Shown here piece by piece: positions 12,389 to 41,462 of a stretch of DNA of 64,000 bases (positions within the stretch are counted from its first letter, which is position 1; every line of letters starts with the position of its first letter). A model generated the notes under the pieces. It was not told the origin of the DNA. It saw only the letters and a list, made by a program, of their open reading frames with translations, and ran no database searches. The translations under genes were made by a program, and so were the position numbers. The DNA is from an uncultured Acidimicrobiia bacterium (lineage in GTDB: Bacteria > Actinomycetota > Acidimicrobiia > Acidimicrobiales > AC-14). Where the stretch lies: the NCBI GenBank assembly GCA_963773275.1, contig CAVZAH010000009.1, positions 865-64,864 on the forward strand, written 5' to 3'.

Positions 12389-15355
12389 TTAGGTCCTGCG
12401 GGCGGCCTCGGCGGCCAAATGGGCCCGTGTGGCCATGCCGAGCTTCTGAAACACGTGGTAGACGTGCGTCTCGATCGTCCGCCGGGAGACGAACAGCTGC
12501 TCGGCAATCTGACGGTTGGTGTGTCCCCTACCGACCAGAGCGACGACGCGACGCTCGGTATCCGTAAGGCTCTCCCACCCGAAGGCCGGGCGTGCCGGTG
12601 CCCGACCCCGCCGGCGGACAGTCGCACCCAGGCTCCGGAGCGCGGCTGTCGTCCGGGCCGCGTTGCGGGCCGCGCCCATCCGCTCGAACGACCCGAGCGC
12701 CTCCTCGAGCAACCCGACCGCTTCGTTCGTGCGACCGACCCGTGCCAGCGAGGCGGCCGCTTCCTCGGCGGTGAATGCGGCATCCGTTTCCCGTCCGCCG
12801 CGGCGATAGCCGGCGACCGCCGCCACCAGGAGGTCCGGTGAGTCGTCGATCAGGCCGCGACACCTGCGTGCCGTCGCCGAGGCGCTCTCGACCGACGACC
12901 GCTCGGCCGCCACCTCGACCTCGGCCGTGACCGACTCAGCGCGGTCGCGACGACCTTCGACGAGCGCGACGCGGACCAGATCGGGGGCGAACCAGCGGTA
13001 GCCGAGGTAATACCGGAGGGGCTCCGCCATCATCCACGCCGCGTCGAATGCCCCGAACGCCTGCGCAGTGTTCCCGGCTGCCTCGGCGAGCACGCCTTCC
13101 ACCCAGAGACCCCATTCGACGGGCCAGTGCGGCCCGGCCTCGACCACGTCGTCGAGGGCGATCGAGGCCCATGTGTGGTCCGCCGCCAGCATCTCCCGCC
13201 GCGCCGCTCCCAGGCGCGACTGGGCGCCTTCCGGATCTCCCCGGTGTACGGCCAGCCAGGCGAGGACACCGTGCAGGAAAGGTGCGTGGACGCGGGTGCC
13301 GACATCGTCGACCAGGGTGAGCGCGCCCTCGACCTCGGCCGCCGCATCCTCCCAGTGGCCGGTGGAACACCGCAGCATGGCCAGCGCCCAGTGGTAGAGG
13401 GGCAGCCACACCACGGTGCCGCGCTCCTCGGCCAGGCGCAGACCCTGCTGCAGAGCGGCCTCGGCCTCGACGAATCGGTCGGCTTCCATCAGCATCAGCC
13501 CGAGGTGGTAATGCGGAAGGAGCTCTCCCATCTGGGGATGCGTCGAGCGCCCGGCGAGGTCGACTGCCCGGCGAGCCAAGTCCACCGCCTCCGACACCCG
13601 CCCTTGGGCGTCGGCCACCACCGACGCGGTCTGGAGGCCGAGGCAGACGGCGACGTCCTCGCCCAGCCGCTCGCCGTCGGCGGTGGCGCTTTCCGCCTCT
13701 GCTCGAGCCCGGTCGACGTCGCCCAGGAACATCCGGAGATGGGCCGCCAGGGCGCGCGTCACGACCTGCTCCACGTCGGCGATGCCCGCCACCGTCGAGG
13801 CCGCGTCGTACTCGGAAACGGCAGCTGCCAACTCGCCACGTACCCACAACGCCGCCGCCAGCGCCCGGTGGAGCGCGGCCTCGACCGGCGGCGGAGGTCG
13901 GGAACGAAGAACCTCCCGGGCGAGAGCGGCAGCATCGCCCGGCCGGCCGACCCGGACCAGCAACGGGGCCAGGTCCCCAACCAATCCGCCCCGCACCGGA
14001 CCGGAGCCGTCAGCCAGCTCGAGGGCACGCTCGAGGAGGTCGACGGCGATGGCCGGCGAGCGAGAGGCGACATCGTGGGCCGCGTCCCGGAGCCAGTTCA
14101 CGGCCTCGGCATCGCCTGGCGCCCCGCAGATCAGCAGGTGCTCGGCGACAAGCGCAGGCGCCGCACCCGCGGAGATGAGGGCGCCGGCCACCTCGCGGTG
14201 CAGACCCCGACGCAGGGCCAGCGGCAGGTCGTCGTAGATGGCGGCGCGGATCAGCTCGTGACGGAACGCGAGGCGTTCGCCCTCCTCCTCCAGGATCCCG
14301 GCCCGCAGCGCGTCGGTGAGCGGCCCGAGGATCTGCGCGACGCTCCGCGCGCAGACTGCCGCCAGATGCGACGGAGCGAAGGACTGGCCCATGACGGCGG
14401 CGATCCGCAGGACCTCCATGGTGGCGTCGGGAAGCGTGTTGATACGGCGAAGGATCGTGAGGCGAAGCGTCGGCGGGAATGAGACATCTCCAATCTCGGC
14501 GACCCCGTCCACCGTTTTGAGGGCGCCTTCGTACCGCAGCGCCCGCACCAGCTCGCCCACGAAGAGCGGGTTGCCGGCGGCGGCGGAGACCTGAGCCAAC
14601 AGCCGAGGGCCCGGAGTCGCCCCGGCAACTTCACGGGTCATCGCCCGCACCGGCTCGCGATCCAGCGGTCCCAGGACCATGTGGGGTGCCCCGAGGGCGA
14701 CGAGTGCATCGGTGACCTCCTCGAGCTCCGGGTTCCGGACGGTCGGACGGTAGGTCAGCAGGAGGGCGACCGGACGCTCGGCCAGGCGCCGCGCGATCGA
14801 ACGGACGGCCCGAAGTGTCGAGGGGTCCGCCCAATGAAGGTCGTCCAGGGCGAGGACCACGGGCCCACTGGCGGCGAGCCGTTCGAGCACTGTGACGATG
14901 GTTTCCACGATCCGAAACCCGACGTCGGACGTCCCGATGAGGGAGGCTTCCGGGCGGACACCACCCTCCTGCCCGCTGATCGCGTCCGCCAGCGCGGCGG
15001 CGTCCGGGTCGGCGGAGCCGAAAACCGGGGCCAGGGCGGCGGCGATCGATCCGAAGGGCTGGTCCCGCTCGAGCTGGTCGGCGGTCCCGTAGAGAACACG
15101 GAATCCGCCCTGCCCGGCGTGGTCGATCGCTTCTGCGAGCAACCGGGTCTTGCCGATCCCGCCCTCACCCGCGATCAGGCAGGTCCGCCCGACGCCGAGG
15201 CGGACGGTGTCGAGAAGCTCCCGCAACAAGGAGAACTCCGCCGAACGACCGACCAGGGAGCCCGTTCTGGCGAGCGGCGGGCCCGTGCCCGTGCCCATCA
15301 ACAGGGCGGACGGCGGCATGAGGGTACCCGTGACCACCCTCCTGATGCCCGCCAT
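12389..15355 (-). CDS. large ATP-binding LuxR-family transcriptional regulator (LAL/MalT-like: AAA+ NTPase, TPR-like middle, C-terminal LuxR HTH)
   Basis: Walker A CLIAGEGGIGKTRL, Walker B VVLALDDLHWAD, C-terminal LTDTERRVVALVGRGHTNRQIAEQLFVSRRTIETHV. Confidence 0.8.
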   Translation of the reverse strand: MAGIRRVVTGTLMPPSALLMGTGTGPPLARTGSLVGRSAEFSLLRELLDTVRLGVGRTCLIAGEGGIGKTRLLAEAIDHAGQGGFRVLYGTADQLERDQPFGSIAAALAPVFGSADPDAAALADAISGQEGGVRPEASLIGTSDVGFRIVETIVTVLERLAASGPVVLALDDLHWADPSTLRAVRSIARRLAERPVALLLTYRPTVRNPELEEVTDALVALGAPHMVLGPLDREPVRAMTREVAGATPGPRLLAQVSAAAGNPLFVGELVRALRYEGALKTVDGVAEIGDVSFPPTLRLTILRRINTLPDATMEVLRIAAVMGQSFAPSHLAAVCARSVAQILGPLTDALRAGILEEEGERLAFRHELIRAAIYDDLPLALRRGLHREVAGALISAGAAPALVAEHLLICGAPGDAEAVNWLRDAAHDVASRSPAIAVDLLERALELADGSGPVRGGLVGDLAPLLVRVGRPGDAAALAREVLRSRPPPPVEAALHRALAAALWVRGELAAAVSEYDAASTVAGIADVEQVVTRALAAHLRMFLGDVDRARAEAESATADGERLGEDVAVCLGLQTASVVADAQGRVSEAVDLARRAVDLAGRSTHPQMGELLPHYHLGLMLMEADRFVEAEAALQQGLRLAEERGTVVWLPLYHWALAMLRCSTGHWEDAAAEVEGALTLVDDVGTRVHAPFLHGVLAWLAVHRGDPEGAQSRLGAARREMLAADHTWASIALDDVVEAGPHWPVEWGLWVEGVLAEAAGNTAQAFGAFDAAWMMAEPLRYYLGYRWFAPDLVRVALVEGRRDRAESVTAEVEVAAERSSVESASATARRCRGLIDDSPDLLVAAVAGYRRGGRETDAAFTAEEAAASLARVGRTNEAVGLLEEALGSFERMGAARNAARTTAALRSLGATVRRRGRAPARPAFGWESLTDTERRVVALVGRGHTNRQIAEQLFVSRRTIETHVYHVFQKLGMATRAHLAAEAARRT

Positions 15356-15518: not shown

Positions 15519-15557
15519 CCGTACACTGTTCCGGTACGGTGTTTTGTACGGAGTGTT
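15519..15557. promoter_or_regulatory. three direct repeats GTAC(A/G)(C/G)(T/A)GTGTT-like immediately upstream of the DUF1778 antitoxin gene; candidate TA operator
   Basis: GTACACTGTT 15521-15530, GTACGGTGTT 15534-15543, GTACGGAGTGTT 15546-15557, followed by SD AAGGGAGG and ATG 15572. Confidence 0.4.
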
Positions 15558-15571
15558 GGCAAGGGAGGCAC

Positions 15572-15844
15572 ATGTCGACCAGGTCCGAGCGAATAGAAGC
15601 ACGGCTTTCCGCAGAGGAGCGGGCGCGGATCGAGCGCGCGGCGCGATTCGAGGGCCGGTCGCTGTCCTCGTTCCTCGTGGAGGCAGCGGTCGTGCGAGCT
15701 GACCAGGTCCTTACGGAAGCCACTGTGACCGTCGTGCCGGCCGACTACTTCGACCGGTTGGTGGCCGCCATGGACGAGCCCGGTCGAGCGCCTCGGCTCG
15801 AACAAGCCGCAGCGCGGGTACGCCAGGATCGCCGCATCGAGTGA
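15572..15844 (+). CDS. DUF1778-family antitoxin (TacA-like) of a GNAT toxin system
   Basis: RSERIEARLSAEERARIERAARFEGRSLSSFLVEAAV typical of DUF1778; SD AAGGGAGG; stop overlaps start of GNAT gene. Confidence 0.65.
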   Translation: MSTRSERIEARLSAEERARIERAARFEGRSLSSFLVEAAVVRADQVLTEATVTVVPADYFDRLVAAMDEPGRAPRLEQAAARVRQDRRIE

Positions 15845-16353
15845 TTGTCGGCCTCGCCATCGAGCCGCTCACCGACGAGCACGACGTCGCGTCCTTCGGC
15901 TGCGGGAACCGCGACCTCACGGACTGGCTTCCCAACCATGCATTGCACGCCCTCGGCCAGGGCACGCGGACCTACGTGCTGGTCGGGCAGGGCCGCAGGG
16001 AGGTGCTGGGGTACTTCGCGTTGGCCCCCCACTTCGTCGAGCGTGAGGAGCTCCTGCGGCGGATGGGCCGCGGGGCGCCCTGCCAGGTACCGGCCATTCT
16101 GCTGGCCAAGCTCGCTCTTGACACGAGCCTCCAGGGACAGGGCTTGGGCCGCGAGCTGCTGATCCGGGCATTGACCACCGTTGTCGACGCGGCTCGCGTC
16201 GCCGGCGGAAAGGTCGTCGTCGTCGACGCTGTCGATGACGCTGCCGCTGCGTTTTACGGGGCCCACGATTTCGCGGCCGTGACGGGAAACCCGAGGCGGC
16301 TCGTCATGAAGTTGAGCACGGTGGCCCAAGCCCTCGGACGACCGTGGCCATGA
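15841..16353 (+). CDS. GNAT-family acetyltransferase toxin (TacT-like)
   Basis: ~170 aa GNAT fold (LLAKLALDTSLQGQGLGRELLIRAL); GTG start overlaps antitoxin stop (GTGA). Confidence 0.65.
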   Translation: MIVGLAIEPLTDEHDVASFGCGNRDLTDWLPNHALHALGQGTRTYVLVGQGRREVLGYFALAPHFVEREELLRRMGRGAPCQVPAILLAKLALDTSLQGQGLGRELLIRALTTVVDAARVAGGKVVVVDAVDDAAAAFYGAHDFAAVTGNPRRLVMKLSTVAQALGRPWP

Positions 16354-16369: not shown

Positions 16370-16639
16370 TCAGGTACCCGACCATTCCGGCGGCAAGCCA
16401 TCGTTCCCGATCCTCGGGCGCGGCGTTGGCGGTGATGGCGCGTGATGCACCCAGCGCATCATCCAGTCGTAGCGGAACGCCACCTGTAGCTCCGCCGCAG
16501 AGAAGGCGAAATTGATCTCGCGTCCGAACTCCACCAGTTGGCCGGTGGTCGGAGTCGGTCCGAGCGCTGCCATCCGCTGCTGCAGCTCGGGACGCTCGCG
16601 CACCTCGTGGAGGAAGGTGAGGGCTGCTTGGGTCGACAT
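16370..16639 (-). CDS. Nif11-domain small protein (Nif11-type leader-like N-terminus, 29-aa C-terminal extension)
   Basis: MSTQAALTFLHEVRERPELQQRMAALGPTPTTGQLVEFGREINFAFSAAELQ matches Nif11 family pattern; 3-nt gap after upstream gene stop; last gene of operon. Confidence 0.6.
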   Translation of the reverse strand: MSTQAALTFLHEVRERPELQQRMAALGPTPTTGQLVEFGREINFAFSAAELQVAFRYDWMMRWVHHAPSPPTPRPRIGNDGLPPEWSGT

Positions 16640-16642
16640 GGG

Positions 16643-18671
16643 TCAGGGGCTGATGACCCCCGGACGGCCGAGCGCGGCCGCGACCGCCGCCGACGTGAAG
16701 ACTCGATGTTGGTCGAGCCCGTTGATCGTCCTTTGCTGTCCTGCTGCGTCGGCCGGCCCCGGCATCGGAACGCGTAGACGTGCGGAAGCAATCCAACTGC
16801 CGTCCGCCCGTTGCGCGTTCACAAGCCATTTCACCGCCCTCGCGCAGGCCTCCTGCGCATCCAGGGTTCGTCCCGAGGCGGAGGATGCGCACGCACCAGG
16901 CGGTCGCCCACGGCGAAGGTTCGCCGTCGGTGCTGAGAACAGCGCCGGTCGCGCCCACCCGCCTCTGCGCCCACGCCACCGCCTGCACCCTGGTCGCGGC
17001 GCAAGCCTCGGCGGCCAATGCCGTCGTGTACTCGTCATCCCACCACCAATAGCCCTTCCAGCCTCCCGCGGGAGTCTGCCGGCCGGCCAGGTACTTCACG
17101 GCCCGATCACCGACGATCGGTGCCGCGGCGGCGGTGACGCAGGCGTGGTCCGCCTGCCAGCCGGCCAGCGACGCATCCTCGGGCAGGCGCGCATACCGGC
17201 GAATCGGGTCGCGATCGGCGTACGTCGTGAGACCGCCACCAGCCAGGACATGCCCGTCGAGAAACCGGCGGGCGGCGGCGACGCGTTCGTCCTGGGCGCC
17301 GAGGCCACCGGCCAGTCGCAGCGCCCAGGCGGTGCTGTCGGCATCGGCGGGCGTCAGCCGGTTGTAGCCCCAACCCGGCTCGTCCCCCCGTCGGAGGAGC
17401 AACGCCCGCCACGCCCGCTCTGCCCCGACGCGGGCGGCGTCCGCCCCTGCTTCCAGCAGGCAGGCGGCCACGAACGCGGTCACCCACTCGTCGCTCGGAC
17501 CCGCGGGCAGGAAGAAGTCGGACCAGCGCCCGGTGTGCGCCTGCCGGGAGAGCACGAAGGCGACCGCGTCGTCAAGGGCCTGCTCCACGAACCGGTCTGC
17601 GTCCGAGGCCGGTTCCTCCACCTCTGGATGGGCGGCGCGCCAGACGTGCCCCGCGCCCCAATAGCCCTTGAGCGAGACGTCCTGGTCCGTCACCGTGAGC
17701 TTCAGGTGGGAGAGCCGGCGCTCGGTGGTGGAGAACTGGTCGGCGGGGCCACACAGCGATGCCGCGATCCAGGGCGCGGGCCACTCCCCGTGCGTTTCGG
17801 GCGGACGCAACACGCCGGGCAGGTTCAGGAAACCCGAGGCACTCTCCGATGTGCAGAGGTCAGCCGAGGACAGCTCTTCGAGGAGCGCCTGCCAGCGCGG
17901 CTCGCCCGGCGGCTGGAATGCGAGCACCGCTTCCAGTCCCAGGCGGGGGTGGACATCGGTGCCCACGTCGAGACAGACCGTGATCCGGTCCACCCGGTCG
18001 AAGGCCCAGGCTGCCCATTGTTCGACGCACGACGGCGAGCCACTCCAGCCCACGGCGCGCAGGAACGGGACAAGGTCGTCCAGCCGAAGCCCCTTGACGT
18101 TGACGCGCAGGCCCTCGGTGGCGCGACCGAGCATGGCGCCGATATAGGCGACGCACGCGCCGGTGGGACACTCGGTGAAGCAGCGCGCCAGGTTCTCGTC
18201 CAAGCCGTGCGGCCACGGTGCGGGCAGCAGGAGCCCCAGCGCCTCACGGGCGACCGATCGCTCGCCCGCTGCGAAGAAGACCGACGGCATCGAGGTTGGC
18301 CGCGGGGCGGTGTCCAGGTCGTACTCCAGGAAGACCTCGGCGATGCCATGATGCAGGAGCGTCCCGGGGTCGGCCCATGCCGTGCAGAACCGGCCGAGCC
18401 GCGCCCATGGGCCTTCGCCCTCCTCAGCCGCAGGATGGGCCGCCAGGATGAAGTCCCGCAGCAGAGCGGGTTCTCCATCCCCCAGAATGACGCACTGCTG
18501 GAGATCGAGCTGGGGCGCACGATCGGCCATCCGGCTCTCCAGCCCGATGCGCGGGATCGGCGCCATGCGCCGCGCCAGTTGCACCAGGTGCTCCCGGTTG
18601 GCCGGGGCATCCCATGGCGCCGGGAGCGCGGGGCAGAGCGTGGGCCAGAAATCGGCAAGCGTCGCCGTCAA
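16643..18671 (-). CDS. large protein: N-terminal region with Cys..His-x11-Asp spacing reminiscent of transglutaminase-core lasso leader peptidase (B2), C-terminal squalene-cyclase/prenyltransferase-type QW repeats; apparent frameshift near 16870
   Basis: QW motifs AFVLSRQAHTGRWSDF, KYLAGRQTPAGGWKGYWWWD and (frame-shifted) AVKWLVNAQRADGSWIAS; LLHHGIAEVFLEYDLDT with upstream Cys; listed ORF 16254-18671 becomes Arg/Gly-rich after ~16880 while QW repeats continue in ORF 16643-17038; 4-nt overlap with kinase gene. Confidence 0.5.
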
Positions 18672-19693
18672 CGGGGCAGGTACGCCATCGCGTCCAACAG
18701 TGCGTCACAGAGCTCAGGCAGCGCGGCCAGGGCGTCCGGACGGTCCACGATGCGAACGGGGGTGGTGCGAGCCAGATCGACCAACGTCAGGAAGCGCTCC
18801 TGGTCGACCGTCGAGTCGAGCCACGCAGGCGTGAGCAGCTGTCCCGCCAACTGTGGCACCGCCGCGGCCGCGGGCAGGGCGGTGACACGCGGCTCCACTA
18901 ATGCGTCGCTGCGGGGCGGCAGCAGGAAGATCCCCGCCAACGGCAGCGGCGCACCTGCACTGCCGAGGCTCGCAGGCTCCCCGAGGGAGACGACGGCCTT
19001 CTCCTCGAGTCGCTGATAGTCGACGCCGGCGAGCTGTGGTGAACGCGACCAGAGCGGGGTTGCGGCTTTCGCCGGTATGGCGAGCACAGCCTGGGCCTCG
19101 GGTGTCAACCGGACGCCGCTCAGACCGGGGAAGACGGCCCAGCACTCGGGCAGCCGGGTCAGGGCGGCCACATCGTCGCTGACGCCACGACAACCGCGCT
19201 GCATCAGGGCGCTGACAGTGGTGGACTTCCCGGCCCCTCGGATACCGGCGAAGAGAAAGGCTCGGTCGCGCCACGCGACGACGCTGCCGTGAATCACGAG
19301 TCTCCCGTGCCGGTGCAGCAGGTAGCCCATCACTGTGCTGAACAACAGTGTCGAGACGTAGGAGAGCGGCACGGCAGCGGTCCACGAGACGACCACCCTC
19401 GCGCCACCGGGCGAGATGTCGAACTGGACGTGGTGGTCGGCGTAGCCGAAACGCAGTCGAGTCCACTCACCCTCGACCTCCGACGAGAAGGACACGGCCA
19501 GCCATCCACCCGTCTCCTCGACGATGACGGTGGACCCGGCCACGACTGCCTCGTCTCCGTCGTTGCGCACGCCCACACAGTCGACCTGCACGTCCCCTGG
19601 TCCGGCTGCATCCTGGCCGAGGTCCGGCGCATCGAGCCGAGCGTCGCAGGCCAGCGTCAGCCCAAACACGTTGTAGTGGAACGCGTGAGGCAC
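18668..19693 (-). CDS. HPr kinase/phosphorylase C-terminal-domain-like kinase (lasso-peptide-type precursor kinase candidate)
   Basis: P-loop FAGIRGAGKSTTVSAL in HprK-like context (GRLVIHGSVVAWRDRAFLFAG...). Confidence 0.65.
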   Translation of the reverse strand: MPHAFHYNVFGLTLACDARLDAPDLGQDAAGPGDVQVDCVGVRNDGDEAVVAGSTVIVEETGGWLAVSFSSEVEGEWTRLRFGYADHHVQFDISPGGARVVVSWTAAVPLSYVSTLLFSTVMGYLLHRHGRLVIHGSVVAWRDRAFLFAGIRGAGKSTTVSALMQRGCRGVSDDVAALTRLPECWAVFPGLSGVRLTPEAQAVLAIPAKAATPLWSRSPQLAGVDYQRLEEKAVVSLGEPASLGSAGAPLPLAGIFLLPPRSDALVEPRVTALPAAAAVPQLAGQLLTPAWLDSTVDQERFLTLVDLARTTPVRIVDRPDALAALPELCDALLDAMAYLPR

Positions 19694-19732
19694 GAGCGGC
19701 TCGGGAAGGCCTAGACCCCGGGGTCGCGCGGG

Positions 19733-19915
19733 CTAGGACGCATAGATGTTCGCACCACCGCCGCCATCGAAATTCGGCCCCGCGGCGTTCATCATGGTCA
19801 GGTCACGCACGTTGCCGTACGTGGACAGGGTTGGCGACTGGTAGTGCTTCTTGGCCGCCGGCGTGGTCGCGTCAGCGGCCATTGGGTCGGTTCCATCCTT
19901 GGGATGCTCATGCAT
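19733..19915 (-). CDS. lasso-peptide-type precursor peptide (leader ...KKHYQSPTLSTYGNVRDLTM, predicted core MNAAGPNFDGGGGANIYAS)
   Basis: Leader matches YxxPxLxxxGxxxxxTx with Thr at -2; core has Asp at position 9 and C-terminal Ser; 8-nt overlap with cyclase gene end; alternative internal Met start possible. Confidence 0.55.
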   Translation of the reverse strand: MHEHPKDGTDPMAADATTPAAKKHYQSPTLSTYGNVRDLTMMNAAGPNFDGGGGANIYAS

Positions 19916-21734
19916 GCGTGGTCTCCTCGAGGTCAGGGAGGTGAGTAGGTCGCTGGTCCCAGTGGGGCCGATGACGCAGCCAGTACGCCAGTTGGACGGG
20001 TGGTCGATCCGTCGCCCAGGTGTGAGCCTGCGCGGCCGCGGGCTGGCTTCTCACGGCCTCGAGCCAGTCGGCATCGACATAGGCTGCCATCTCCGGGGCA
20101 CCGAGCAGGTCGATCTCCCAGGCTGGGGCTCCCGTCCGGCTGTTCCGTTCGAGTGCGACGTCGCCGGGCATCACCGTCTTTGGTCGCGTGCGGACGACCT
20201 CCGGCAGGCGGTCGCCCATCGCCTCCCGCAACAGCCGCTTGCCGTCGAACCACGGCACCGGCGGGATCGCCAGCACGAACTCGAGCAGGCGCAGGTCGAA
20301 GAACGGGAAGCGGACGCTCAGCCGGAAACCGTTGTAGCCGGAATCCGACCACGCGAACAACGTCCGCCAGAGGGGCGCCTGCACCAGTCCGACCTGCTCG
20401 CGCAGGGCCCGCCGGTGGAAGGTGGCAGAGCGCTCGGCCAGGTCCATGCGCCGGGCCCACTCCGGGTTCACCCACGCGGGGAGCGGAACCGGTCGACCTC
20501 GCCGTTGACGGTCTCGACGACTGGTCACCAACCGCCGCAGGGGCCACTGCCAGGAGCCCTGCCGGAGCGCGGCCCAGGCTCGTCGCCACGCGAGATCGGG
20601 CGGAGCAAGGAGCGGGTCGCCGCCGTAGCCGGTCAGCAGGACAGGCGCGAACGCGGCGGTGCGCCGGCAGATCTCCGCCATCTGCCAGTACATGGCGGCG
20701 CCTGGTTCTGGCGGCACCCAGGCCGGATGGGCTTCGGGTTCGGCGCTCAGGTAGGTCTCGCCGTCCACCAGCTCGACGGGAAATCCCGCATGCTCCGCAA
20801 CCCGGGTCGCCAGAATCCCCTCCTCATCGGGGATCAGCGAGCGGTAGTCGATTGTGTACGCACGGAGATCGAACGGCCGACCGGTCGCTCGGAGGGAGTG
20901 GCGCGCGGTGACGGCGATGCTCGTCGAGTCCATCCCGCCGCTCAACTGGGTGCCGACACGGTCGGCGCGCAGACGGTCGCCGACGGCCTGGTCGAAGAGC
21001 AGCCGAAAGTGCTCCGCGTAATCTTCAGGGCGGCGATTGCGAAGGAGGCGCGCCGGCTGGCGCAACGTCCAGTAGCGCTCGATGCGCACTCCGCGCCCGT
21101 CCCACCAGAGTTTGTGAGCGGGCGGCAGGCGGCGAATCGCGGCATAGCCGGTCGCCGCGTCGTCGACGTAGACCGTGAACAGCGCCAGGTCCGCCAATGT
21201 CTGTTCGTCGAGGGTGTCGGCGACGCCGGGATGACGGAGCAGGCTGTGGAGGGTGTTGCCCAGAACGAGTGTGCCGTTGACCGTCGTGTAGAAGAGCTGG
21301 GCCACGCCAAGTTGATCGCGCGCCGCCAGCAGCCTTTGCCGGCGTTCGTCCCACAGGACAAAGGCGAAATCGCCGATCAGGTGATCGAGGCACGCGTCGC
21401 CCCAGGTCAGGTAGGCGTGGAGGATGAGCTCGACGTCGGGCGCGTCGCCGGCGACGTCGCGTCGCTGCGCACGCAAGCGTTGGATGAGCGCCGTCCGCCC
21501 GTCGATGCGGGCATCGGCTGCGATCCACACTTCGCCGTCAAGGCTGCAGGGCTGTATCTCGTGGGCCGACTCGATCGTCGTGCGGAAGAGCGTGTGCCCG
21601 AGCCCGACCCGCTCTCCCGCCCACGTGCGTTGCGCATCCGGGCCACGAAAGGCCATCGCCGCCGCCATCTGGGTCAGGAGTCCGCGGTCGAGGGGTGCGT
21701 GATCTGTGTTCAGCAACCCGACGAACCCGCTCAA
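19908..21734 (-). CDS. asparagine synthetase B-like lasso peptide cyclase (C protein)
   Basis: N-terminal glutaminase-like domain, PP-loop SGGMDS, ~608 aa; flanked by PqqD-like and precursor genes. Confidence 0.8.
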   Translation of the reverse strand: MSGFVGLLNTDHAPLDRGLLTQMAAAMAFRGPDAQRTWAGERVGLGHTLFRTTIESAHEIQPCSLDGEVWIAADARIDGRTALIQRLRAQRRDVAGDAPDVELILHAYLTWGDACLDHLIGDFAFVLWDERRQRLLAARDQLGVAQLFYTTVNGTLVLGNTLHSLLRHPGVADTLDEQTLADLALFTVYVDDAATGYAAIRRLPPAHKLWWDGRGVRIERYWTLRQPARLLRNRRPEDYAEHFRLLFDQAVGDRLRADRVGTQLSGGMDSTSIAVTARHSLRATGRPFDLRAYTIDYRSLIPDEEGILATRVAEHAGFPVELVDGETYLSAEPEAHPAWVPPEPGAAMYWQMAEICRRTAAFAPVLLTGYGGDPLLAPPDLAWRRAWAALRQGSWQWPLRRLVTSRRDRQRRGRPVPLPAWVNPEWARRMDLAERSATFHRRALREQVGLVQAPLWRTLFAWSDSGYNGFRLSVRFPFFDLRLLEFVLAIPPVPWFDGKRLLREAMGDRLPEVVRTRPKTVMPGDVALERNSRTGAPAWEIDLLGAPEMAAYVDADWLEAVRSQPAAAQAHTWATDRPPVQLAYWLRHRPHWDQRPTHLPDLEETTHA

Positions 21735-22024
21735 GCGCCTGGTCGTCCCGCGCGTCGGATCAACCCGGCGGCGGCCAGCTCACCAACCAGGCGATCGACG
21801 TCGCTCCGCACCGTCGCTTCGTCGACGTCGTACTCCTGCAGGATGGCGGCAACGACGGGCTCTGTGGTGCCGTGCTCTTCGAGCAGCTGCCACATGCGGC
21901 TACCGACTTCGTCCAACCCGAAGTAGGTCTCGGATGTGAGGTGAAGCAGCACGATTTCGGCGTCCAGTTGTTGATGAAGCACCGCATCGGGGATGGTGAT
22001 CGGTGAGCTGTCGGACTGGCTCAT
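21731..22024 (-). CDS. PqqD-family RiPP recognition element protein (lasso B1)
   Basis: 97 aa, VLLHLTSETYFGLDEVGSRMWQLLEE...LQEYDVDEATVRSDVDRLVGELAAAGLI; 4-nt overlap with cyclase start. Confidence 0.7.
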   Translation of the reverse strand: MSQSDSSPITIPDAVLHQQLDAEIVLLHLTSETYFGLDEVGSRMWQLLEEHGTTEPVVAAILQEYDVDEATVRSDVDRLVGELAAAGLIRRAGRPGA

Positions 22025-22137: not shown

Positions 22138-22857
22138 TCAGGTTTCCGGGACTGGAATCGCCGCGACCTCCAGGCGGGCCAGTCGTTCACGGACCGCGGG
22201 GGCGAAGGGGCTCCAGAGGAACCAGCGGCCGAAGGCGCGGGTGAGCGATGGGAGGCCTTGGATGGTGACGGTGCCGTCGCTGAGGGCGGTGGCCAGCGGC
22301 ACGATGCCGGAGAAGACGCGCATCAGGGCCACGGCGTCGGTGGTGACGAGGACGTCGGTGTCGAACCCGGGGTGCTTGACGCAGACGGACGGCTCCCCGC
22401 GATCGAGAACGAGCCAGATCGTGACGGCACCCGGACCGAGGTAGTCGAACTCGATGACGACGCGCCGGTCGGGCAGCCGGCCGTGGTCGACCCGCCGGTG
22501 CATCCACCACGTGAGGCTGATCGGATCGACCTCGGCCGGCTCGGGTTCGGCGAACAACCAGCGCACGGCCCACTCGCCGAGGGCGGCCAACACCGGCTCG
22601 AGATCCTTGCCGGCGGGGGTGAGGTGGTACTCGTTGCCGCGCCCCGATGCGGTCGGTCGACGCTCGAGGACGCCTTTGCGCTCGAGGTGGCGCAGCCGTT
22701 CGGCGAGCAGGGTGCGGGAGATGCCGGGCAGGCCCCGTTCGATGTCGTTGAAGCGGGTGCTGCCGATGACCATCTCCCGCAGGATGAGCGGGGTCCACCG
22801 GTCGGCGAGCACCTCGCTGCCGAGCGACACGGGACAGTACTGGCCGTACTCGCGCAC
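22138..22857 (-). CDS. HxlR-family winged-helix transcriptional regulator with C-terminal extension
   Basis: YCPVSLGSEVLADRWTPLILREM...RFNDIERGLPGISRTLLAERLRHLERKGVLER. Confidence 0.7.
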   Translation of the reverse strand: MREYGQYCPVSLGSEVLADRWTPLILREMVIGSTRFNDIERGLPGISRTLLAERLRHLERKGVLERRPTASGRGNEYHLTPAGKDLEPVLAALGEWAVRWLFAEPEPAEVDPISLTWWMHRRVDHGRLPDRRVVIEFDYLGPGAVTIWLVLDRGEPSVCVKHPGFDTDVLVTTDAVALMRVFSGIVPLATALSDGTVTIQGLPSLTRAFGRWFLWSPFAPAVRERLARLEVAAIPVPET

Positions 22858-33002: not shown

Positions 33003-33418
33003 CACGTGGTGCCTCGGGGGTCACCGTCGAGCACTCTCTCTCGTGGTGCCGGCGCCTCGACGCCCTCGTGGTGGGGGCGGCGTGCGACCTGGCGGCGCCG
33101 TCGTTCGACGCCGGCCAGCGCTGCGGCGTTCTCCGCGCCAGCACCTCGAGGCCTGCTGAAAACCGAACACCCGGCTACGATCCCGGCACGGTTTTCCGCG
33201 TTCGAGGAGTGCCGATGCGAGCGAGGCTGGGGGGCATTGCGGAGTCGTCGTGCCGGACGTCTCACACGTCGCGTTGGCGGCGTGTGGCGACGACGAGGAC
33301 ACGGCAGACGAGTAGCCGACAGCCGGGACGTCGGCGCGCGGGTGAGGTCGTCGTGCCGATTCGGGCGATCAGGTGAGCTTTCTGTCAGACTGCCGCCCAC
33401 CGACAACGGGGAGTTGCC

Positions 33419-35134
33419 ATGCGTAGAACGGCCCTGCTACTCGGACTGACCGCCCTGGTCCTGACGGGCGGTTCCGCGGCGCTGTCGCCGGCGGCGGCCG
33501 CCGGCGACCAGGAGTACGTCGTCCTCTTCCGCTCCGACGCATCCGGCGCTGCCGCCCGGCAGGCCGTCACCGCCGCCGCGGGCACCGTCGTGCGGGAGAA
33601 CACCGCCGTGGGGCTGGCCACGGTGCGGTCGTCCAACCCCCGCTTCCTGGCCGATGCCGGCCGTCAGGGCGCGGTCGAAGGGGTCGCCCGGAGCGTGCCG
33701 GTCGGCAGCGCTCCGCCCACCAACCGTCCCAAGCCGGACGACGTCGAGCGCCTGACAGCCGAGCGCCAAGCCGCTCGCCAGGCGACCCAGGCCCCGGCCC
33801 AGGCCGCCGCCGCGGCCGCAGCTGCGTCCGTGGTCGTGGGGGCCGAGCCCCTGGCCGGGCTCCAGTGGAACATGAAGATGATCCGGGCCACCGCCACCGA
33901 GTCGCACGCCGTCCAGCCGGGCGACAAGCGGGTGCTGGTCGGGATCATCGACACCGGCGTCGACGGATCGCACCCCGACATAGCCCCCAACTTCAACCGG
34001 TCCCTGAGCCGCAACTTCACGACCGACATCCCCCTGATCGACGGGCCCTGCGCGGAGGAGCCCGACCACTCCTGCGCCGACCCGGCCGACGTCGACGAGA
34101 ACGGCCACGGCACCCACGTGGCAGGCATCATCGGCGCCCCCATCAACGGGCTGGGCATCGCCGGCGTGGCCCCCAACGTGACCCTGGCCAACCTCCGGGC
34201 GGGCCAGGACTCGGGCTACTTCTTCCTCCAGTCCACCGTCGACGCCCTCACCTTCGCCGGCGACAACGGGTTCGACGTCGTCAACATGAGCTTCTACACC
34301 GACCCGTGGCTGTTCAACTGCGCCGCCAACCCGGCCGACTCGCCGGCCGAGCAGGCGGAGCAGCGCACCATCATCGCCGCCACCCAGCGGGCGCTCGACT
34401 ACGCCAACGCCCGGGGCGTGACGATGGTGGCCGCCATGGGCAACGAGCACACCGATCTCGGACGGCCCACGTCGGACGCAACCAGCCCCGACTACCCGCC
34501 CGGGGCGGCGAAGCCGAGGACAGTGAACAACTCCTGCCTGAACCTGCCCACCGAGGGCCGCAACGTCATCGCAGTGAGCTCGGTGGGGCCGAGCAAGGCC
34601 AAGGCCGACTACTCCAACTACGGCCTGGAACAGACCGAGGTGGCGGCCCCCGGCGGCTACTTCCGCGACCTTTTCGGGACGCCGCAGCACCGCACCGTCG
34701 GCAACCTGATCCTCTCCGCCTACCCGGAGCGCCTGGCGCGGGAGGCCGGCGACATCGACCAGAACGGGCTCCCCACCAACGAGTTCGTGGTCCGCAGCTG
34801 CAAGGCCGCCGTCTGCGGCTACTACCAGTACCTCCAGGGAACGTCGATGGCGTCGCCCCACGCGGCGGGCGTCGGCGCTCTCATCGTCAGCAGGCTGGGG
34901 TACACGGATCCCCGCCGGGCCGGGCTCACGCTGCCGCCGGCCTCCACCGAGGCGATCCTCGAGGGAACGGCCACACCCCGCCCCTGCCCCGTCCCCCCGC
35001 TGGTCTCCTACGCCAACGAGGGGCGGCCGGCGGAGTACAACGCCCTGTGCCTCGGCCCACCCGCCCTCAACGGCTTCTACGGCCGGGGGATCGTCGACGC
35101 CCTCTCTGCTGTAACCCTGCGCCCCCGGGTATAG
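33419..35134 (+). CDS. secreted S8-family subtilisin-like serine peptidase with propeptide
   Basis: Signal peptide MRRTALLLGLTALVLTGGSAA; catalytic D (GIIDTGVD), H (HGTHVAG), S (GTSMASPHAAG). Confidence 0.85.
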   Translation: MRRTALLLGLTALVLTGGSAALSPAAAAGDQEYVVLFRSDASGAAARQAVTAAAGTVVRENTAVGLATVRSSNPRFLADAGRQGAVEGVARSVPVGSAPPTNRPKPDDVERLTAERQAARQATQAPAQAAAAAAAASVVVGAEPLAGLQWNMKMIRATATESHAVQPGDKRVLVGIIDTGVDGSHPDIAPNFNRSLSRNFTTDIPLIDGPCAEEPDHSCADPADVDENGHGTHVAGIIGAPINGLGIAGVAPNVTLANLRAGQDSGYFFLQSTVDALTFAGDNGFDVVNMSFYTDPWLFNCAANPADSPAEQAEQRTIIAATQRALDYANARGVTMVAAMGNEHTDLGRPTSDATSPDYPPGAAKPRTVNNSCLNLPTEGRNVIAVSSVGPSKAKADYSNYGLEQTEVAAPGGYFRDLFGTPQHRTVGNLILSAYPERLAREAGDIDQNGLPTNEFVVRSCKAAVCGYYQYLQGTSMASPHAAGVGALIVSRLGYTDPRRAGLTLPPASTEAILEGTATPRPCPVPPLVSYANEGRPAEYNALCLGPPALNGFYGRGIVDALSAVTLRPRV

Positions 35135-35180
35135 GGATTCGTTGCATCGTCCGATTGTGAACCACGAACCGAGGAGCCCA

Positions 35181-36872
35181 ATGGTGCGACCGATACGGAA
35201 GACCAACTGGCGGCTGCTGTGCCTGCCCCTCATGCTGGCGGTCGTTGCCGCAGCCTGCGGCAGCGACGACGACGGCGACGGCGGGGGGGCGTCGAGCGAC
35301 ACGACGTCGGTGGCGGTCCCCAGCGGGGGGACGCTCGTCCTCGGCGCCGAGCAGGAAGGTGACTGCGCCGACTGGATGGGCAGCTGCGGCGGCACCAGCT
35401 GGTTCTTCTGGTCGTGGGGCGCCATCACGATGCCCCGCGCCTACTCGGTCGAGCCGGCGGGCGACGGGTGGGTGGCCAAGCACACCAGCCTGCTGACCGG
35501 TCCTGCCACCCTGACGACGTCACCGAAGCAGGTCGTCACCTACACCATCAACCCGGCGGCGAAGTGGTCCGACAACACGCCGATCACCTCGAACGACTTC
35601 AAGTTCACGTGGGAGCAGGTGGCCACCGGGTCCAACATCTACGACCGCACCGGCTACGACAAGATCGAGAGCGTCGACAACAGCGTGCCCGGTACCGCGG
35701 TCGTCACGTTCAAGGAGCCCTACGCCGACTGGCGGACGACCCTGTTCGGCGGCAACTACGGGATCTACCCCGCCCACCTGGTGAAGGACCACGCCGAGAT
35801 CGCCAACGGCTACACCTGGTCGGGCGGCCCGTGGAAGCTCGACCACTGGACCAAGGGCACCGAGTGGGTCATCGTGCCCAACGAGAACTACTGGGGCGAG
35901 AAGCCGAAGCTCGACAAGGTCATCTTCAAGTTCATCAGCGACACCTCGGCCGAGTTCCAGGCGTTCAAGGCCGGAGAGGTGCTGGGGATCTACCCCCAGC
36001 CCCAGCTCGACGCCGTCGACCAGATCAACGCCGGCCTGCCCAACGCCAAGGCCCAGTACACCGACCAGACGGGCAACGCCGAGGGCCTCTGGATGAACGC
36101 CGGCAAAGCGCCGTTCGACGACCTGAACTTCCGTGTCGCCGTCGCCTACTCGATCGACCGCGACGCCATCGTCAACCGCCTGTTCGGTGGCCTCGGGGTC
36201 ACCAAGGCGCTCCAGACGATGACCGCCCCCATCCTGGCGCCGTTCGCGTCCACCAACGCCTTCGCCCAGTACAAGAAGGACCTCACCAAGGTCAACGAGG
36301 CCATGACGAAGTCGGGCTGGACGAAGGGCAGCGACGGGATCTGGGAGAAGGACGGCCAGAAGGCGGCCTTCGAGATGAAGACCACCAGCGGCAACAAGCG
36401 CCGGGAGCTCACCGAGCAGATCCTCCAGCAGGACCTGAAGGAAGCCGGCTTCACCATGACGATCAACAACCAGGCGGCGGGCGACCTGTTCGGCGACCAG
36501 CTGCCGAAGGGCGACTTCCAGATCGCCCTCTACGCCCAGGTGCTGACGTCGTTCTACCCGAGCAACTGCAACCTGTTCTGCTCGAAGAACATCCCGACTG
36601 CGGAGAACAACTTCTCGGGGCAGAACTGGACCCGCACCAACGTCGCCGACCTCGACACCCACTACGGGCTGACCGAGACCGAGCTCGACGAGCCCAAGGC
36701 CCAGGCGGCCAACAAGAAGGGCGACGACGCTCTCGCCGCCGCCGTGTCGATGCTCCCCCTCGACCCGCTGCCGAACATCCTGCTGACCAGCACCAAGATC
36801 GTCGGCCCCGTCGCCGACAACCCCATCCAGGGACCGTTCTGGATGATGTGGGGTTGGGGCCTCAACCCGTAG
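35181..36872 (+). CDS. ABC transporter substrate-binding lipoprotein, family 5 (peptide/nickel, DppA/OppA-like)
   Basis: Lipobox LMLAVVAAACGSDDD; SBP_bac_5-like length and motifs; followed by two permeases and two ATPases. Confidence 0.8.
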   Translation: MVRPIRKTNWRLLCLPLMLAVVAAACGSDDDGDGGGASSDTTSVAVPSGGTLVLGAEQEGDCADWMGSCGGTSWFFWSWGAITMPRAYSVEPAGDGWVAKHTSLLTGPATLTTSPKQVVTYTINPAAKWSDNTPITSNDFKFTWEQVATGSNIYDRTGYDKIESVDNSVPGTAVVTFKEPYADWRTTLFGGNYGIYPAHLVKDHAEIANGYTWSGGPWKLDHWTKGTEWVIVPNENYWGEKPKLDKVIFKFISDTSAEFQAFKAGEVLGIYPQPQLDAVDQINAGLPNAKAQYTDQTGNAEGLWMNAGKAPFDDLNFRVAVAYSIDRDAIVNRLFGGLGVTKALQTMTAPILAPFASTNAFAQYKKDLTKVNEAMTKSGWTKGSDGIWEKDGQKAAFEMKTTSGNKRRELTEQILQQDLKEAGFTMTINNQAAGDLFGDQLPKGDFQIALYAQVLTSFYPSNCNLFCSKNIPTAENNFSGQNWTRTNVADLDTHYGLTETELDEPKAQAANKKGDDALAAAVSMLPLDPLPNILLTSTKIVGPVADNPIQGPFWMMWGWGLNP

Positions 36873-36978
36873 CAGCCGCCGCACCATGGCGTCATCAGAG
36901 ATCGGAGTCTCACCCGGCGCCCGGCCGGTCCCTTCCGCGGACCGGCCGGGCGTGCGCCCGGCCCGGACCTGAACCCGC

Positions 36979-37944
36979 ATGCTGACGTACGTCGCACGGC
37001 GCGTCCTCTACTCCATCCCCGTCCTGCTCGTCGCCTCGTTCCTCCTGTTCGCCTTCGTCCGGGTGACGTTCGACCCCACCGACCGGCTCCGGTCCTCCCG
37101 CGATCCCCAGGCCATCGAACGGGCCCGCAAGGAGCTGGGACTCGACAAGCCCATCGTCACCCAGTACACGACCTGGCTCAGCGACTTCGTGCGAGGCGAC
37201 TGGGGCGAGAGCACCCGCACCCAGGAGCGCGTCCTCCCGGTGATCCGGCGGGCCTTCTGGAACACGCTGCAACTGATCATCTGGGGGGTGTTGCTCGCCA
37301 CGCTGATCTCCGTCGGGGTGGGCGTCTTCTCGGCCGTGCGGCAGTACTCCCTGGCCGACTACGGGTTCACCGGTCTGTCCTTTTTGGCCCTCGCCATGCC
37401 TCCGTTCTGGTTCGGGCTGATCGCCATCCAGTTTCTGGCGGTCTATCCCAGGGACTGGTTCAACCTGGCGACGACGCCCCTCTACTTCGTCGGCCTCCAC
37501 TCCTCCACCGCCACCGGCGTCGGCGACTACGCCCGGCACCTCGTGCTGCCGGTGCTGACGCTGACGATCCAGATCATCGCCAGCTGGAGCCGCTACGGGC
37601 GGGCGTCGATGCTCGACGCACTCTCGGCCGACTACGTGCGTACCGCCCGGGCCAAGGGCGTCCCCCGCCGGCAGGTGATCTTCAAGCACGCCTTCCGCAA
37701 CGCCCTCATCCCTCTCGTCACGGTGATGGCCCTCGACATCGGCGCCCTGTTCGGGGGGCTGGTGGTCACCGAGCAGATCTTCTCGATCCCGGGGATGGGC
37801 CGGCTCTTCGTCGACTCCCTGATCCAGGGTGACGTCAACGTGCTCGTGGTCTGGACCGTGATCACGGCCTCGTTCGTCATCGCGTTCAACCTGCTGGCCG
37901 ACGTGCTCTACGGCCTGCTCGACCCGAGGATCCGGTACACGTGA
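36979..37944 (+). CDS. ABC transporter permease (DppB/OppB-like)
   Basis: BPD_transp_1-type permease; 4-nt overlap with next permease. Confidence 0.85.
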   Translation: MLTYVARRVLYSIPVLLVASFLLFAFVRVTFDPTDRLRSSRDPQAIERARKELGLDKPIVTQYTTWLSDFVRGDWGESTRTQERVLPVIRRAFWNTLQLIIWGVLLATLISVGVGVFSAVRQYSLADYGFTGLSFLALAMPPFWFGLIAIQFLAVYPRDWFNLATTPLYFVGLHSSTATGVGDYARHLVLPVLTLTIQIIASWSRYGRASMLDALSADYVRTARAKGVPRRQVIFKHAFRNALIPLVTVMALDIGALFGGLVVTEQIFSIPGMGRLFVDSLIQGDVNVLVVWTVITASFVIAFNLLADVLYGLLDPRIRYT

Positions 37945-38894
37945 CGCCCGAGCCCGACGACCACCCCGACCCGGCGCTCGTGTCCACGCGCGGCATCTCC
38001 AGCGCCGCCGGCATGGACCTCGAGCTCCTGGCCGCGACCGAACCGGCATCCCGGACCCAATGGTCGCTGTTCGGGCGCCGGTTCCTGCGCCACCGGATGG
38101 CGGTCGTGTCGGTGTTCCTGCTGTTGTTCCTCTTGGTCGTCTGCTTCGGTGCCACGTGGGTGGCACCGTACGACCGGAACGAGATCGATCTCCTGCTCGG
38201 GCCACAGGGGCCGTCGGGCGCCCACTGGTTCGGCACCGACGAGCTGGGGCGCGACCAGCTGACCGAGATCATGTTCGCGGGCCAGATCTCACTCAAGATC
38301 GGCCTGGCGGTGGCGTTCATCGCCACCGTGGTGGGCACGATGCTGGGCTCCCTGGCCGGCTTCTTCGGGAAGATCCCCGAGCAGCTCCTCATGCGCCTCA
38401 CCGACCTCTTCCTCGTGGTCCCCGCCATCGCCATCCTGGCCATCGCCATCAAGAAGTTCGGCAACAGCAGCACGACGATCGTGCTCGTGCTGGCCGGCCT
38501 CGGCTGGATGTACATCGCCCGGGTGGTGAGGGGCCAGGTGCTGTCCATCAAGGAGAAGGAGTTCGTGGAGGCGGCCCGGGTGTCGGGGGCGTCGAGCGCC
38601 CGCATCATCTCCCGCCACATCCTGCCGAACATCGTGGGGCCGGTCCTGGTGAACGCCACCCTCGGGATCGCAGCCGCCATCGTCACCGAGTCGACGCTGT
38701 CGTTCCTGGGCTTCGGCGTGCAGCCCCCGGTCACCTCGTGGGGACGGATGCTGTCCGACGCCCGGGGGACGGTGGGCACCGACAAGGCCCACCTGATCTA
38801 CTTCCCCGGCCTCGCCCTCCTGCTCACGGTGCTGTCGGTGAACTACATCGGCGACGGCCTGCGGGATGCCTTCGACCCCCAGTCGAAGCGGTAG
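37941..38894 (+). CDS. ABC transporter permease (DppC/OppC-like)
   Basis: Permease with N-terminal extension; conserved region near ...AFIATVVGTMLGSLAGFFG. Confidence 0.85.
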   Translation: MTPEPDDHPDPALVSTRGISSAAGMDLELLAATEPASRTQWSLFGRRFLRHRMAVVSVFLLLFLLVVCFGATWVAPYDRNEIDLLLGPQGPSGAHWFGTDELGRDQLTEIMFAGQISLKIGLAVAFIATVVGTMLGSLAGFFGKIPEQLLMRLTDLFLVVPAIAILAIAIKKFGNSSTTIVLVLAGLGWMYIARVVRGQVLSIKEKEFVEAARVSGASSARIISRHILPNIVGPVLVNATLGIAAAIVTESTLSFLGFGVQPPVTSWGRMLSDARGTVGTDKAHLIYFPGLALLLTVLSVNYIGDGLRDAFDPQSKR

Positions 38895-38897
38895 CCG

Positions 38898-40309: not shown

Positions 40310-40361
40310 GGATGCGTCGGGTGCCGGTGCGGCGAGTGCGGGGGCGGCGGGTGCAGGGGCG

Positions 40362-41462
<1,101 letters not shown>

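Follow-up and report, generated by a model that had tools for sequence, protein, structure and literature searches.

Described systems closest to the operon

NctPC, in which a prenyltransferase of the alpha-beta-beta-alpha (ABBA) barrel fold is joined to an MstE-like cyclase, geranylgeranylates a Trp residue of a peptide made by ribosomes and modified after translation (RiPP) and then cyclizes the attached chain (review PMC13290415, citing Hubrich et al., Chem 2024); ChrPC is a variant with a trans-IDS-like prenyltransferase (P) domain (PMC13290415). Here, we analyze an operon of six minus-strand genes, at positions 16370-22024 of a 64,000-nt stretch of contig CAVZAH010000009.1 from an uncultured Acidimicrobiia bacterium (the whole stretch is hereafter the window), in which a predicted enzyme of this prenyltransferase-terpene cyclase (PC) type is encoded among lasso peptide genes. 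An association of PC enzymes with lasso genes is said to have been noted already in 2024, and in the abstract of Hubrich et al. 2024, cyclic isoprenoid units are reportedly predicted from genome data for Nif11 and lasso peptides as well.

On the lasso side, the nearest described systems are clusters with an HprK-like kinase. PadeK, ThcoK, SyanK, and PsmK add phosphate, in many cases more than once, to the C-terminal Ser while the precursor is still linear (PMC9266682, PMC6993621, PMC8498205), and lasso kinases are reported to be largely indifferent to the remaining precursor sequence (PMC8498205). A 2026 JACS review of lasso peptides lists Trp prenylation and Ser phosphorylation, and the words "terpene" and "isoprenoid" do not occur in it (PMC13352647). 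The window has in common with the systems of paeninodin (PadeK), the ThcoK/SyanK substrates, and pseudomycoidin (PsmK/PsmN) the HprK-like kinase, a precursor that ends in Ser, and the order cyclase-precursor-kinase (C-A-K). It differs from kinase-tailored lasso clusters in having no B2 leader peptidase, nucleotidyltransferase, or ABC exporter, and in having a PC enzyme and a Nif11-like protein, both of which are unreported from described clusters of this kind. Trp-prenylated lasso peptides (Harris et al. 2024) resemble the window in pairing a lasso peptide with an isoprenoid from a soluble prenyltransferase (predicted in the window). In the cases known, the prenyl group on Trp is short, linear, and uncyclized, whereas in the window a terpene cyclase is part of the enzyme and the cores are without Trp.

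A sequence-only reading of the same DNA had proposed a lasso-type RiPP operon of non-canonical composition. We find that it is one, and that the kinase, the terminal Nif11 gene, and the C-A order are conserved in relatives. The same reading held that nothing similar had been described, which is too strong since PC fusions acting on RiPPs have been published (NctPC and ChrPC; PMC13290415). A precursor placed after the cyclase was likewise taken to be undescribed, yet C-A-K-ordered kinase clusters have been characterized (paeninodin, pseudomycoidin). Not described as characterized in the searchable literature are the combination of lasso genes, kinase, PC enzyme, and core-less Nif11-like protein, and a PC acceptor other than Trp.

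The large protein is predicted to fuse a prenyltransferase to a terpene cyclase

The gene that encodes the PC protein spans 18671 down to 16643 on the minus strand. It had been read as an intact protein of ~740 aa, a view that gives way on inspection of the frames: in the open reading frame (ORF) list, a read-through ORF of 805 aa stands beside a second ORF, of 131 aa, that ends at 16643, and a frame plot of GC content at third codon positions (GC3) shows the coding frame switching near 16860-16880. We place the shift at a CCC run with one surplus C (16864..16866, minus strand), although it could equally fall anywhere in ~16861-16875. Deleting one C from this run restores ...RILRLGTNLDAQEAC... 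and an alignment without gaps to 17 intact homologues. The repaired protein is 675 aa long, against 646-726 aa for full-length homologues. A programmed frameshift was rejected, as the full-length homologues are all uninterrupted and align gap-free after removal of the one C.

The C-terminal domain of the repaired protein (residues ~360-675; 16643..17594, minus strand, interrupted by the frameshift) has the features of an MstE-like monodomain class II terpene cyclase. Positions 372-690 of a profile built from 44 family members match MstE, an enzyme in the pathway to merosterolic acid (PDB 6sbb-6sbg), at E 1.2e-92; the profile matches the related "prenylcyclase" 6ij1 at 1.1e-86 and squalene-hopene cyclase at only 1e-18; the C-terminal half from the window alone matches MstE at E 1.1e-54. 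AlphaFold predicts the repaired protein with confidence (pLDDT 93, pTM 0.92), and for the C domain Foldseek gives MstE at E 2e-22 and a TM score of 0.83. The acid motif DxD(T/S)T is present, with P-A-D443-A-D445-S-T-A-W aligned to G-D-A-D109-T-T-G-W of MstE, and Y493 is aligned to Y157; D109 and Y157 are the residues mutated in deposited MstE structures. The window C domain and MstE are thus homologous over the whole length. They differ in that MstE stands alone and acts on a small-molecule prenylated benzoate, whereas the window domain is fused to a prenyltransferase and is without the MstE insertion containing R337. The squalene-cyclase-type QW repeats seen earlier in this half were right in spirit, as it belongs to the class II terpene cyclases, but single-sequence Pfam matches there are marginal (E 0.07).

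Fold searches show the N-terminal half (P domain, residues ~1-350; 17624..18671, minus strand) to consist of five beta-beta-alpha-alpha repeats in an ABBA prenyltransferase barrel. All ten residues that are invariant in the family lie in this domain: E116, D118, F132, G178, R189, E247, P290, H322, K324, and Y337. Neither the P domain nor the PC fusion is covered by a model in Pfam or NCBIfam, and homologues go by the database names "hypothetical protein" and "prenyltransferase and squalene oxidase repeat". As in the NctPC type, the window thus holds an ABBA-fold P domain and an MstE-like C domain on one polypeptide, here with a broken frame, within a RiPP cluster.

Relatives of the repaired protein were collected from a protein collection (60 proteins) and from a scan of one genome per species, which gave 166 confirmed relatives among 185,579 species representatives. 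Locus counts refer to the 80 of these 166 that were kept, and feature counts to the 68 of the 80 that carry any lasso gene. These loci bear on a quite different assignment of the large protein, made in the sequence-only reading, as a B2-like (transglutaminase-like) leader peptidase fused to a QW toroid that takes the place of the missing B2. B2 is indeed absent from the window, and the large protein is the only uncharacterized enzyme there. Pfam, NCBIfam, and fold searches give no B2 or transglutaminase signal for its N terminus, no Transglut_core3 match among them, and the fold is that of an ABBA barrel. Invariant positions on the barrel strands hold Glu, Asp, Arg, His, Lys, and Tyr, and Cys was not found at any invariant position. 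In addition, a separate, ordinary B2 gene stands beside the same protein in 37 of the 68 related loci. We regard this assignment as almost certainly wrong. With an MstE-like cyclase at the C terminus and an ABBA fold at the N terminus, the large protein is therefore a PC fusion rather than a peptidase fusion, and prenyl transfer and cyclization are its predicted activities.

The fusion recurs within a conserved lasso gene set

The rest of the operon supplies a lasso biosynthetic set, and the ORF list confirms the six packed minus-strand genes. Adjacent genes overlap by 4-8 nt or are 3 nt apart; only the precursor and the kinase are separated further, by 39 nt, so that junctions of 3-8 nt, as first described, hold for most of the cluster and not for this one. 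The first gene (21731..22024, minus strand) encodes B1, a 97-aa PqqD-like RiPP recognition element (Pfam PqqD, E 7.4e-20), whose best NCBIfam matches are lasso PqqD chaperone models at 2e-14 and 2e-13, both below cut-off. It overlaps by 4 nt the start of the cyclase gene (19908..21734, minus strand). The 608-aa cyclase, an Asn-synthetase-like lasso macrolactam cyclase with an SGGMDS PP-loop, matches Pfam Asn_synthase at 2.7e-30 and GATase_7 at 3.9e-22; its top NCBIfam match is NF033535, "lasso peptide isopeptide bond-forming cyclase" (7.8e-89), with 299 bits, below the 525-bit equivalog cut-off. Two components of a split-B lasso system, the C protein and the B1 recognition element, are thus in place as the sequence-only reading had named them, and so are the precursor and kinase described below.

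The 60-aa precursor (19733..19915, minus strand) carries the leader motif Y25xxPxLxxxGxxxxxT40, read directly from the sequence, in a leader that ends ...KKHYQSPTLSTYGNVRDLT-M. Matches to the NCBIfam models lasso_cyano (3.9e-5) and lasso_leader_L3 (0.011) are both below cut-off. With Thr at position -2, the predicted core is MNAAGPNFDGGGGANIYAS, in which Asp9, within core positions 7-9 where Asp or Glu is expected, is the ring acceptor; the core has a single Tyr (Tyr17), ends ...IYAS with Ser19 at its C terminus, and contains no Trp. Orthologous precursors lie at the matching position in relatives, and the first predicted core residue is Met in the window and Thr in close relatives.

Following the precursor is the gene for the kinase (18668..19693, minus strand; 341 aa), an HprK-related lasso tailoring enzyme. 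Its single-sequence matches are weak (Pfam Hpr_kinase_C, 1.3e-3; TIGR04352, 7.6e-9); a family profile matches the HPr kinase/phosphorylase structures 1jb1 and 1ko7 at ~1e-10. When 15 diverse kinases of the family were aligned, H135, K156 (in the P-loop G-x-G-K-S/T), D173, and D174 were invariant. These residues correspond to the His-Lys-Asp-Asp motif that is essential in the lasso kinases PadeK and ThcoK (PMC9266682). The window therefore resembles paeninodin-type systems in both an HprK homologue with its catalytic residues and a precursor ending in Ser.

The set as a whole is conserved. Among the lasso-type PC loci, the kinase is present in 68 of 68, PqqD in 61, the cyclase in 60, and a Nif11-like ORF in 64; at least 52 have the kinase directly upstream of the PC gene on the same strand. 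Relatives come from Acidimicrobiia (63-71% identity), cyanobacteria, Solirubrobacterales, Chitinophaga, Pedobacter, Sphingomonadales, and Gemmatimonadales, among other hosts. One relative (L002, 63% identity) has the six genes of the window in identical order and is also without B2. More distant loci (L003, L005, L007) have a separate Transglut_core3 B2, often plus a P450 or a methyltransferase. Since the six-gene set recurs in dozens of genomes, its conservation is far beyond chance.

Not every PC gene stands in such a context. Kinase, cyclase, and PqqD genes are all missing from 12 of the 80 loci, several of which are from Nostoc. Besides two tandem-NHLP precursors with ...HSWTGC... Trp/Cys cores, one of these loci, from Nostoc calcicola FACHB-3891 (L049, 6884-15341), encodes a 326-aa protein with no assigned family, a PC enzyme of 707 aa, and a LanM-like synthetase, and is probably an NctPC-type arrangement. 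Over the full length, the Nostoc PC enzyme and the window protein share 33% identity (E 4e-89); on the barrel, the Nostoc enzyme has R-x-C-x-V where the window has R189-x-N191-x-K193. The NctPC type and the window also differ in what they modify: an NHLP-leader peptide in the former and a lasso precursor with a PqqD recognition system in the latter. Moreover, unlike the NctPC type, the lasso PC of the window type is accompanied by two partners, an HprK-like kinase and a Nif11-like protein that has no core.

Other neighbors in 28 of the related loci (145 ORFs) include NTP_transf_5 proteins (9), P450s (9), S-adenosylmethionine-dependent methyltransferases (4), and WelO5-like halogenases (3). That they recur suggests that other lineages modify the terpenoid or the peptide further.

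Conserved core residues and the proposed product

To the conserved gene set corresponds a conserved set of precursor features. The 60 unique predicted cores are rich in Gly, Ser, Asn, Ala, Thr, and Asp. Ser is at the C terminus in 58 of them, Tyr is present in 59, and exactly one Tyr is found in 53; Trp and Cys each occur in a single core. The Tyr is 1-2 residues from the terminal Ser in 43 cores, and in most of the others the distance is 4-12 residues. In one locus (L003, 6150-7040) the precursor gene is duplicated, with the cores NTTMGGRANDGGGAMLYLS and NTTMGGTANDGGGANIYTS, and a B2-like fragment is repeated between the cyclase and the kinase.

Conservation of the terminal Ser is explained by the kinase, because its characterized homologues phosphorylate a C-terminal Ser, and by analogy the window enzyme is predicted to (poly)phosphorylate the C-terminal Ser of its precursor. 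The Tyr calls for another explanation. We considered it as a mere recognition element of the kinase, an idea weakened by the variable spacing between Tyr and Ser and by the reported sequence independence of lasso kinases; on these grounds the kinase does not account for the conserved Tyr. Second kinase copies in three loci (L017, L018, L021) offered no usable precursors from PC-less clusters with which to compare C-terminal motifs. As NctPC uses Trp and the window-type cores have none, the acceptor of the PC enzyme must differ here, and Tyr is the likely one. The natural substrate of MstE is itself a prenylated phenol, geranylgeranyl dihydroxybenzoate (PDB titles), which a prenylated Tyr would resemble.

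Our preferred reading, to which we give a probability of about 0.6, is that the operon encodes a lasso peptide whose tail bears both a phosphate and a prenyl-derived polycyclic terpenoid. The order of steps that we propose is as follows. B1 would bind the YxxPxLxxxGxxxxxT leader, as expected from its family, and the kinase would phosphorylate Ser19 of the linear precursor, possibly repeatedly, as its residues and its homology to PadeK, ThcoK, and PsmK suggest. The leader would then be removed, a step for which most relatives have a clustered B2 cysteine protease and for which the activity here would come from elsewhere or be missing, and the cyclase would link the new N terminus to Asp9. Next, the ABBA P domain would prenylate the tail, most likely at the single conserved Tyr, using a prenyl diphosphate drawn from primary metabolism, with a chain that is probably geranylgeranyl (C20) or farnesyl (C15). 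Finally, the MstE-like C domain would protonate the distal double bond via Asp445 and so give a polycyclic terpenoid. For the core MNAAGPNFDGGGGANIYAS, the calculated monoisotopic mass is 1764.753 as the lasso, 1844.719 once HPO3 is added, 2116.969 with both HPO3 and C20H32, and 2048.907 with both HPO3 and C15H24. A more specific form of this proposal, with phospho-Ser, a Tyr-linked sterol- or hopanoid-like polycycle on the lasso tail, and the core-less Nif11 leader acting in trans, is advanced tentatively, and we would not expect every part of it to hold.

Several points weigh against the preferred reading. Characterized PC enzymes modify Trp, and a Tyr acceptor is an extrapolation from them. 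Paeninodin, a kinase-only lasso peptide, reportedly also ends ...HYDS, so a Tyr near the C terminus is perhaps not specific to PC clusters. Both Met and Thr are atypical as the first core residue of a lasso peptide, and the cleavage site may be mis-assigned. No polyprenyl synthase that would point to a donor chain length is among the recurrent neighbor families of the 28 related loci, and the searchable literature contains no experimental product of any PC-lasso cluster. In this genome, moreover, with the PC gene out of frame and no B2 in 64 kb, the local copy may yield no product at all, or just a peptide without a prenyl group.

The main rival to Tyr prenylation, drawn by analogy with pseudomycoidin, keeps both enzymes and moves the prenyl group to the phosphate on the C-terminal Ser: the kinase would make phospho- or pyrophospho-Ser, the P domain would O-prenylate the phosphate, and the cyclase would close the chain. 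In pseudomycoidin the phospho-Ser is a handle to whose phosphate PsmN adds hexoses, and PsmK also makes the pyrophosphate and triphosphate on Ser (PMC6993621). At least 52 of the 68 loci have the kinase gene immediately upstream of the PC gene and overlapping it; drimenyl-diphosphate and copalyl-diphosphate synthases are among the structural relatives, and class II cyclases act on prenyl diphosphates. Phosphate prenylation would, however, leave the single Tyr of 53 of the 60 cores, at its variable distance from Ser, unexplained, and the nearest relatives of the C domain, MstE and NctPC, use prenyl chains linked to arenes and not to phosphate. We also know of no precedent for an ABBA prenyltransferase that prenylates a phosphate. 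Altogether, we consider this route unlikely, if still worth keeping in view.

If the preferred reading, with Tyr as acceptor, is true, the product would be a lasso peptide with an amphiphilic tail of phosphate and cyclized terpenoid, merging the tailoring of kinase-type lasso peptides with that of PC-type terpenoid RiPPs, and PC enzymes would be extended from Trp to a new acceptor. The PC-lasso family is common and occurs in the cultivable genera Chitinophaga, Pedobacter, Sphingomonas, and Nostoc, which makes the proposal directly testable. Among cultured strains, candidates for an intact cluster of this type are Chitinophaga dinghuensis DSM 29821 (L027), Pedobacter arcticus A12 (L040), Sphingomonas sp. 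Root720 (L078), and Nostoc sp. UHCC 0251 (L014).

The Nif11-like protein has no recognizable core peptide

The last gene of the operon (16370..16639, minus strand) begins 3 nt past the PC stop codon and encodes an 89-aa Nif11-like protein. Its match to Pfam Nif11 (1.6e-5) scores 25.5 bits against a cut-off of 23.8, in agreement with the terminal Nif11 gene of the sequence-only reading. Against TIGR03798, the model of Nif11-type leader precursors (Haft et al. 2010), it scores 17.3 with a cut-off of 32.3. Orthologues are 63-95 aa long and share ...AF(R/K)xDWxMR... near the end of the domain. The protein shares an N-terminal Nif11 domain with the Nif11-type leader precursors but differs from them in lacking both a GG-type cleavage site and a conserved core. 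In 72 orthologues, the tails that follow are short, variable, and mostly polar, with neither a GG motif nor a conserved core, so that of the domain, cleavage motif, and core that mark a Nif11-leader precursor only the domain is found. A role as a conventional precursor was accordingly judged unlikely, and because the tails are short and variable and the score is below the NCBIfam precursor cut-off, we treat the protein as an accessory subunit. Our guess, drawn from co-occurrence, is that it may be a detached leader-like domain that acts in trans on the PC enzyme. If so, it would be a natural case of a detached leader by which a RiPP tailoring enzyme is recruited or activated, and the conserved core-less protein would bear on how a leader-dependent enzyme was recruited to another RiPP class.

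The DWxMRW motif raises the question of whether the operon contains two RiPP systems, with the PC enzyme prenylating the Trp of the Nif11-like protein and the lasso peptide being only phosphorylated. Hubrich et al. 2024 reportedly list Nif11-type precursors among the predicted PC substrates. Characterized PC enzymes act on Trp (PMC13290415), the Nif11-like gene is only 3 nt behind the PC gene, and ...AF(R/K)xDWxMR(W)... is conserved in most Nif11-like proteins. The motif is not universal, though: Sphingomonadales proteins have FRLxMxARL and no Trp at all (e.g. L005, L039, L046, L047, L050, L053-L057, L061, L073), and the PC gene is kept there. What follows the motif is a short, variable sequence with no GG-type cleavage site or conserved core, in a protein below the NCBIfam cut-off for Nif11 leader precursors, and the single conserved Tyr of the lasso cores would again be left unexplained. 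We therefore consider a Nif11-like substrate improbable, more so than prenylation of the Ser phosphate, and retain the lasso tail as the predicted site.

Two features of individual Nif11-like tails were observed besides. The window protein has a unique 25-aa C-terminal extension, HHAPSPPTPRPRIGNDGLPPEWSGT (16370-16450, minus strand), that is missing from its closest orthologues (66-72 aa) and may reflect a lost stop codon. A tail in common, STVAVVNxxxSS, is found in five loci of Solirubrobacterales and other actinomycetotal metagenome-assembled genomes (MAGs) (L024, L041, L042, L071, L083), and could be a second modified peptide in that clade.

Absence of B2 and state of the cluster in this genome

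The lack of B2 in the window is a real departure from the canonical lasso gene set. A hidden Markov model (HMM) built from 14 cluster-associated B2 proteins found none in the whole 64 kb (best E ~1), and Pfam Transglut_core3 matched no protein of the cluster. On the results of Pfam, NCBIfam, the B2 HMM, and fold search, we rejected the idea that the large protein, or any other part of the window, conceals a B2. In the closest relatives (L008, L009, L011, L013), B2 or an NTP_transf_5-B2 fusion is encoded just upstream of PqqD, a position occupied in the window by an HxlR-family regulator (22138-22857). Two of the fusions are single frames that match both NTP_transf_5, a PsmN-like nucleotidyltransferase, and Transglut_core3 (L009, 5210-6646; L011, 4712-6586); the window has no such gene. 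A nucleotidyltransferase-B2 fusion has been reported in Firmicutes kinase-type lasso clusters (PMC8498205).

These observations, together with the frameshift, allow for the cluster in this genome to be a decaying remnant, with a truly frameshifted PC gene, B2 or its fusion lost, and no mature prenylated lasso peptide made. The public protein record of the source genome (P0001) is a 776-aa read-through, so the extra base at 16864-16866 is part of the deposited assembly, and neither the 64-kb HMM search nor the position upstream of PqqD yields the B2 of the closest relatives. Still, the shift is one of a single base in a homopolymer. In long-read MAG loci of the family, the kinase gene is split into two ORFs (L010, L013, L026), and in one of them (L013) the PC gene is called as a 412-aa fragment; with such split ORFs among its relatives, an assembly indel is plausible for the window as well. 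Thus the frameshift is either an assembly error, plausibly an indel, or a real inactivating mutation. All other genes of the cluster are intact, and the relative L002/L012 likewise has no B2 and yet has an intact PC gene. Because pseudomycoidin forms in two heterologous hosts without B1 and B2 (PMC6993621), the absence of B2 need not be fatal. Decay is in our estimate a possibility to be taken seriously, but the less probable account of this locus when set against a cluster that makes a phosphorylated, terpenoid-bearing lasso peptide.

Neighboring genes

The cluster has a third-codon-position GC of 0.76-0.83 while neighboring genes have 0.85-0.97, which hints at horizontal acquisition. A promoter and terminator scan returned no promoter-like sites and one terminator-like site, located within a gene. 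Converging with the end of the Nif11-like gene is a plus-strand pair (15539-16353) consisting of a TacA-like antitoxin (Pfam TacA1, 1.6e-16) and a TacT-like GNAT acetyltransferase toxin that overlap by 4 nt; the stop codons of the pair and the Nif11-like gene are 16 nt apart. Past this toxin-antitoxin pair, downstream of the cluster, is the gene for a 988-aa LuxR-family regulator with AAA_16, TPR, and GerE domains (12389-15355, minus strand). Lying ~11 kb away on the plus strand (33377-41462) are a subtilase (S8) gene and, after it, the complete gene set of an Opp-type oligopeptide ABC transporter.

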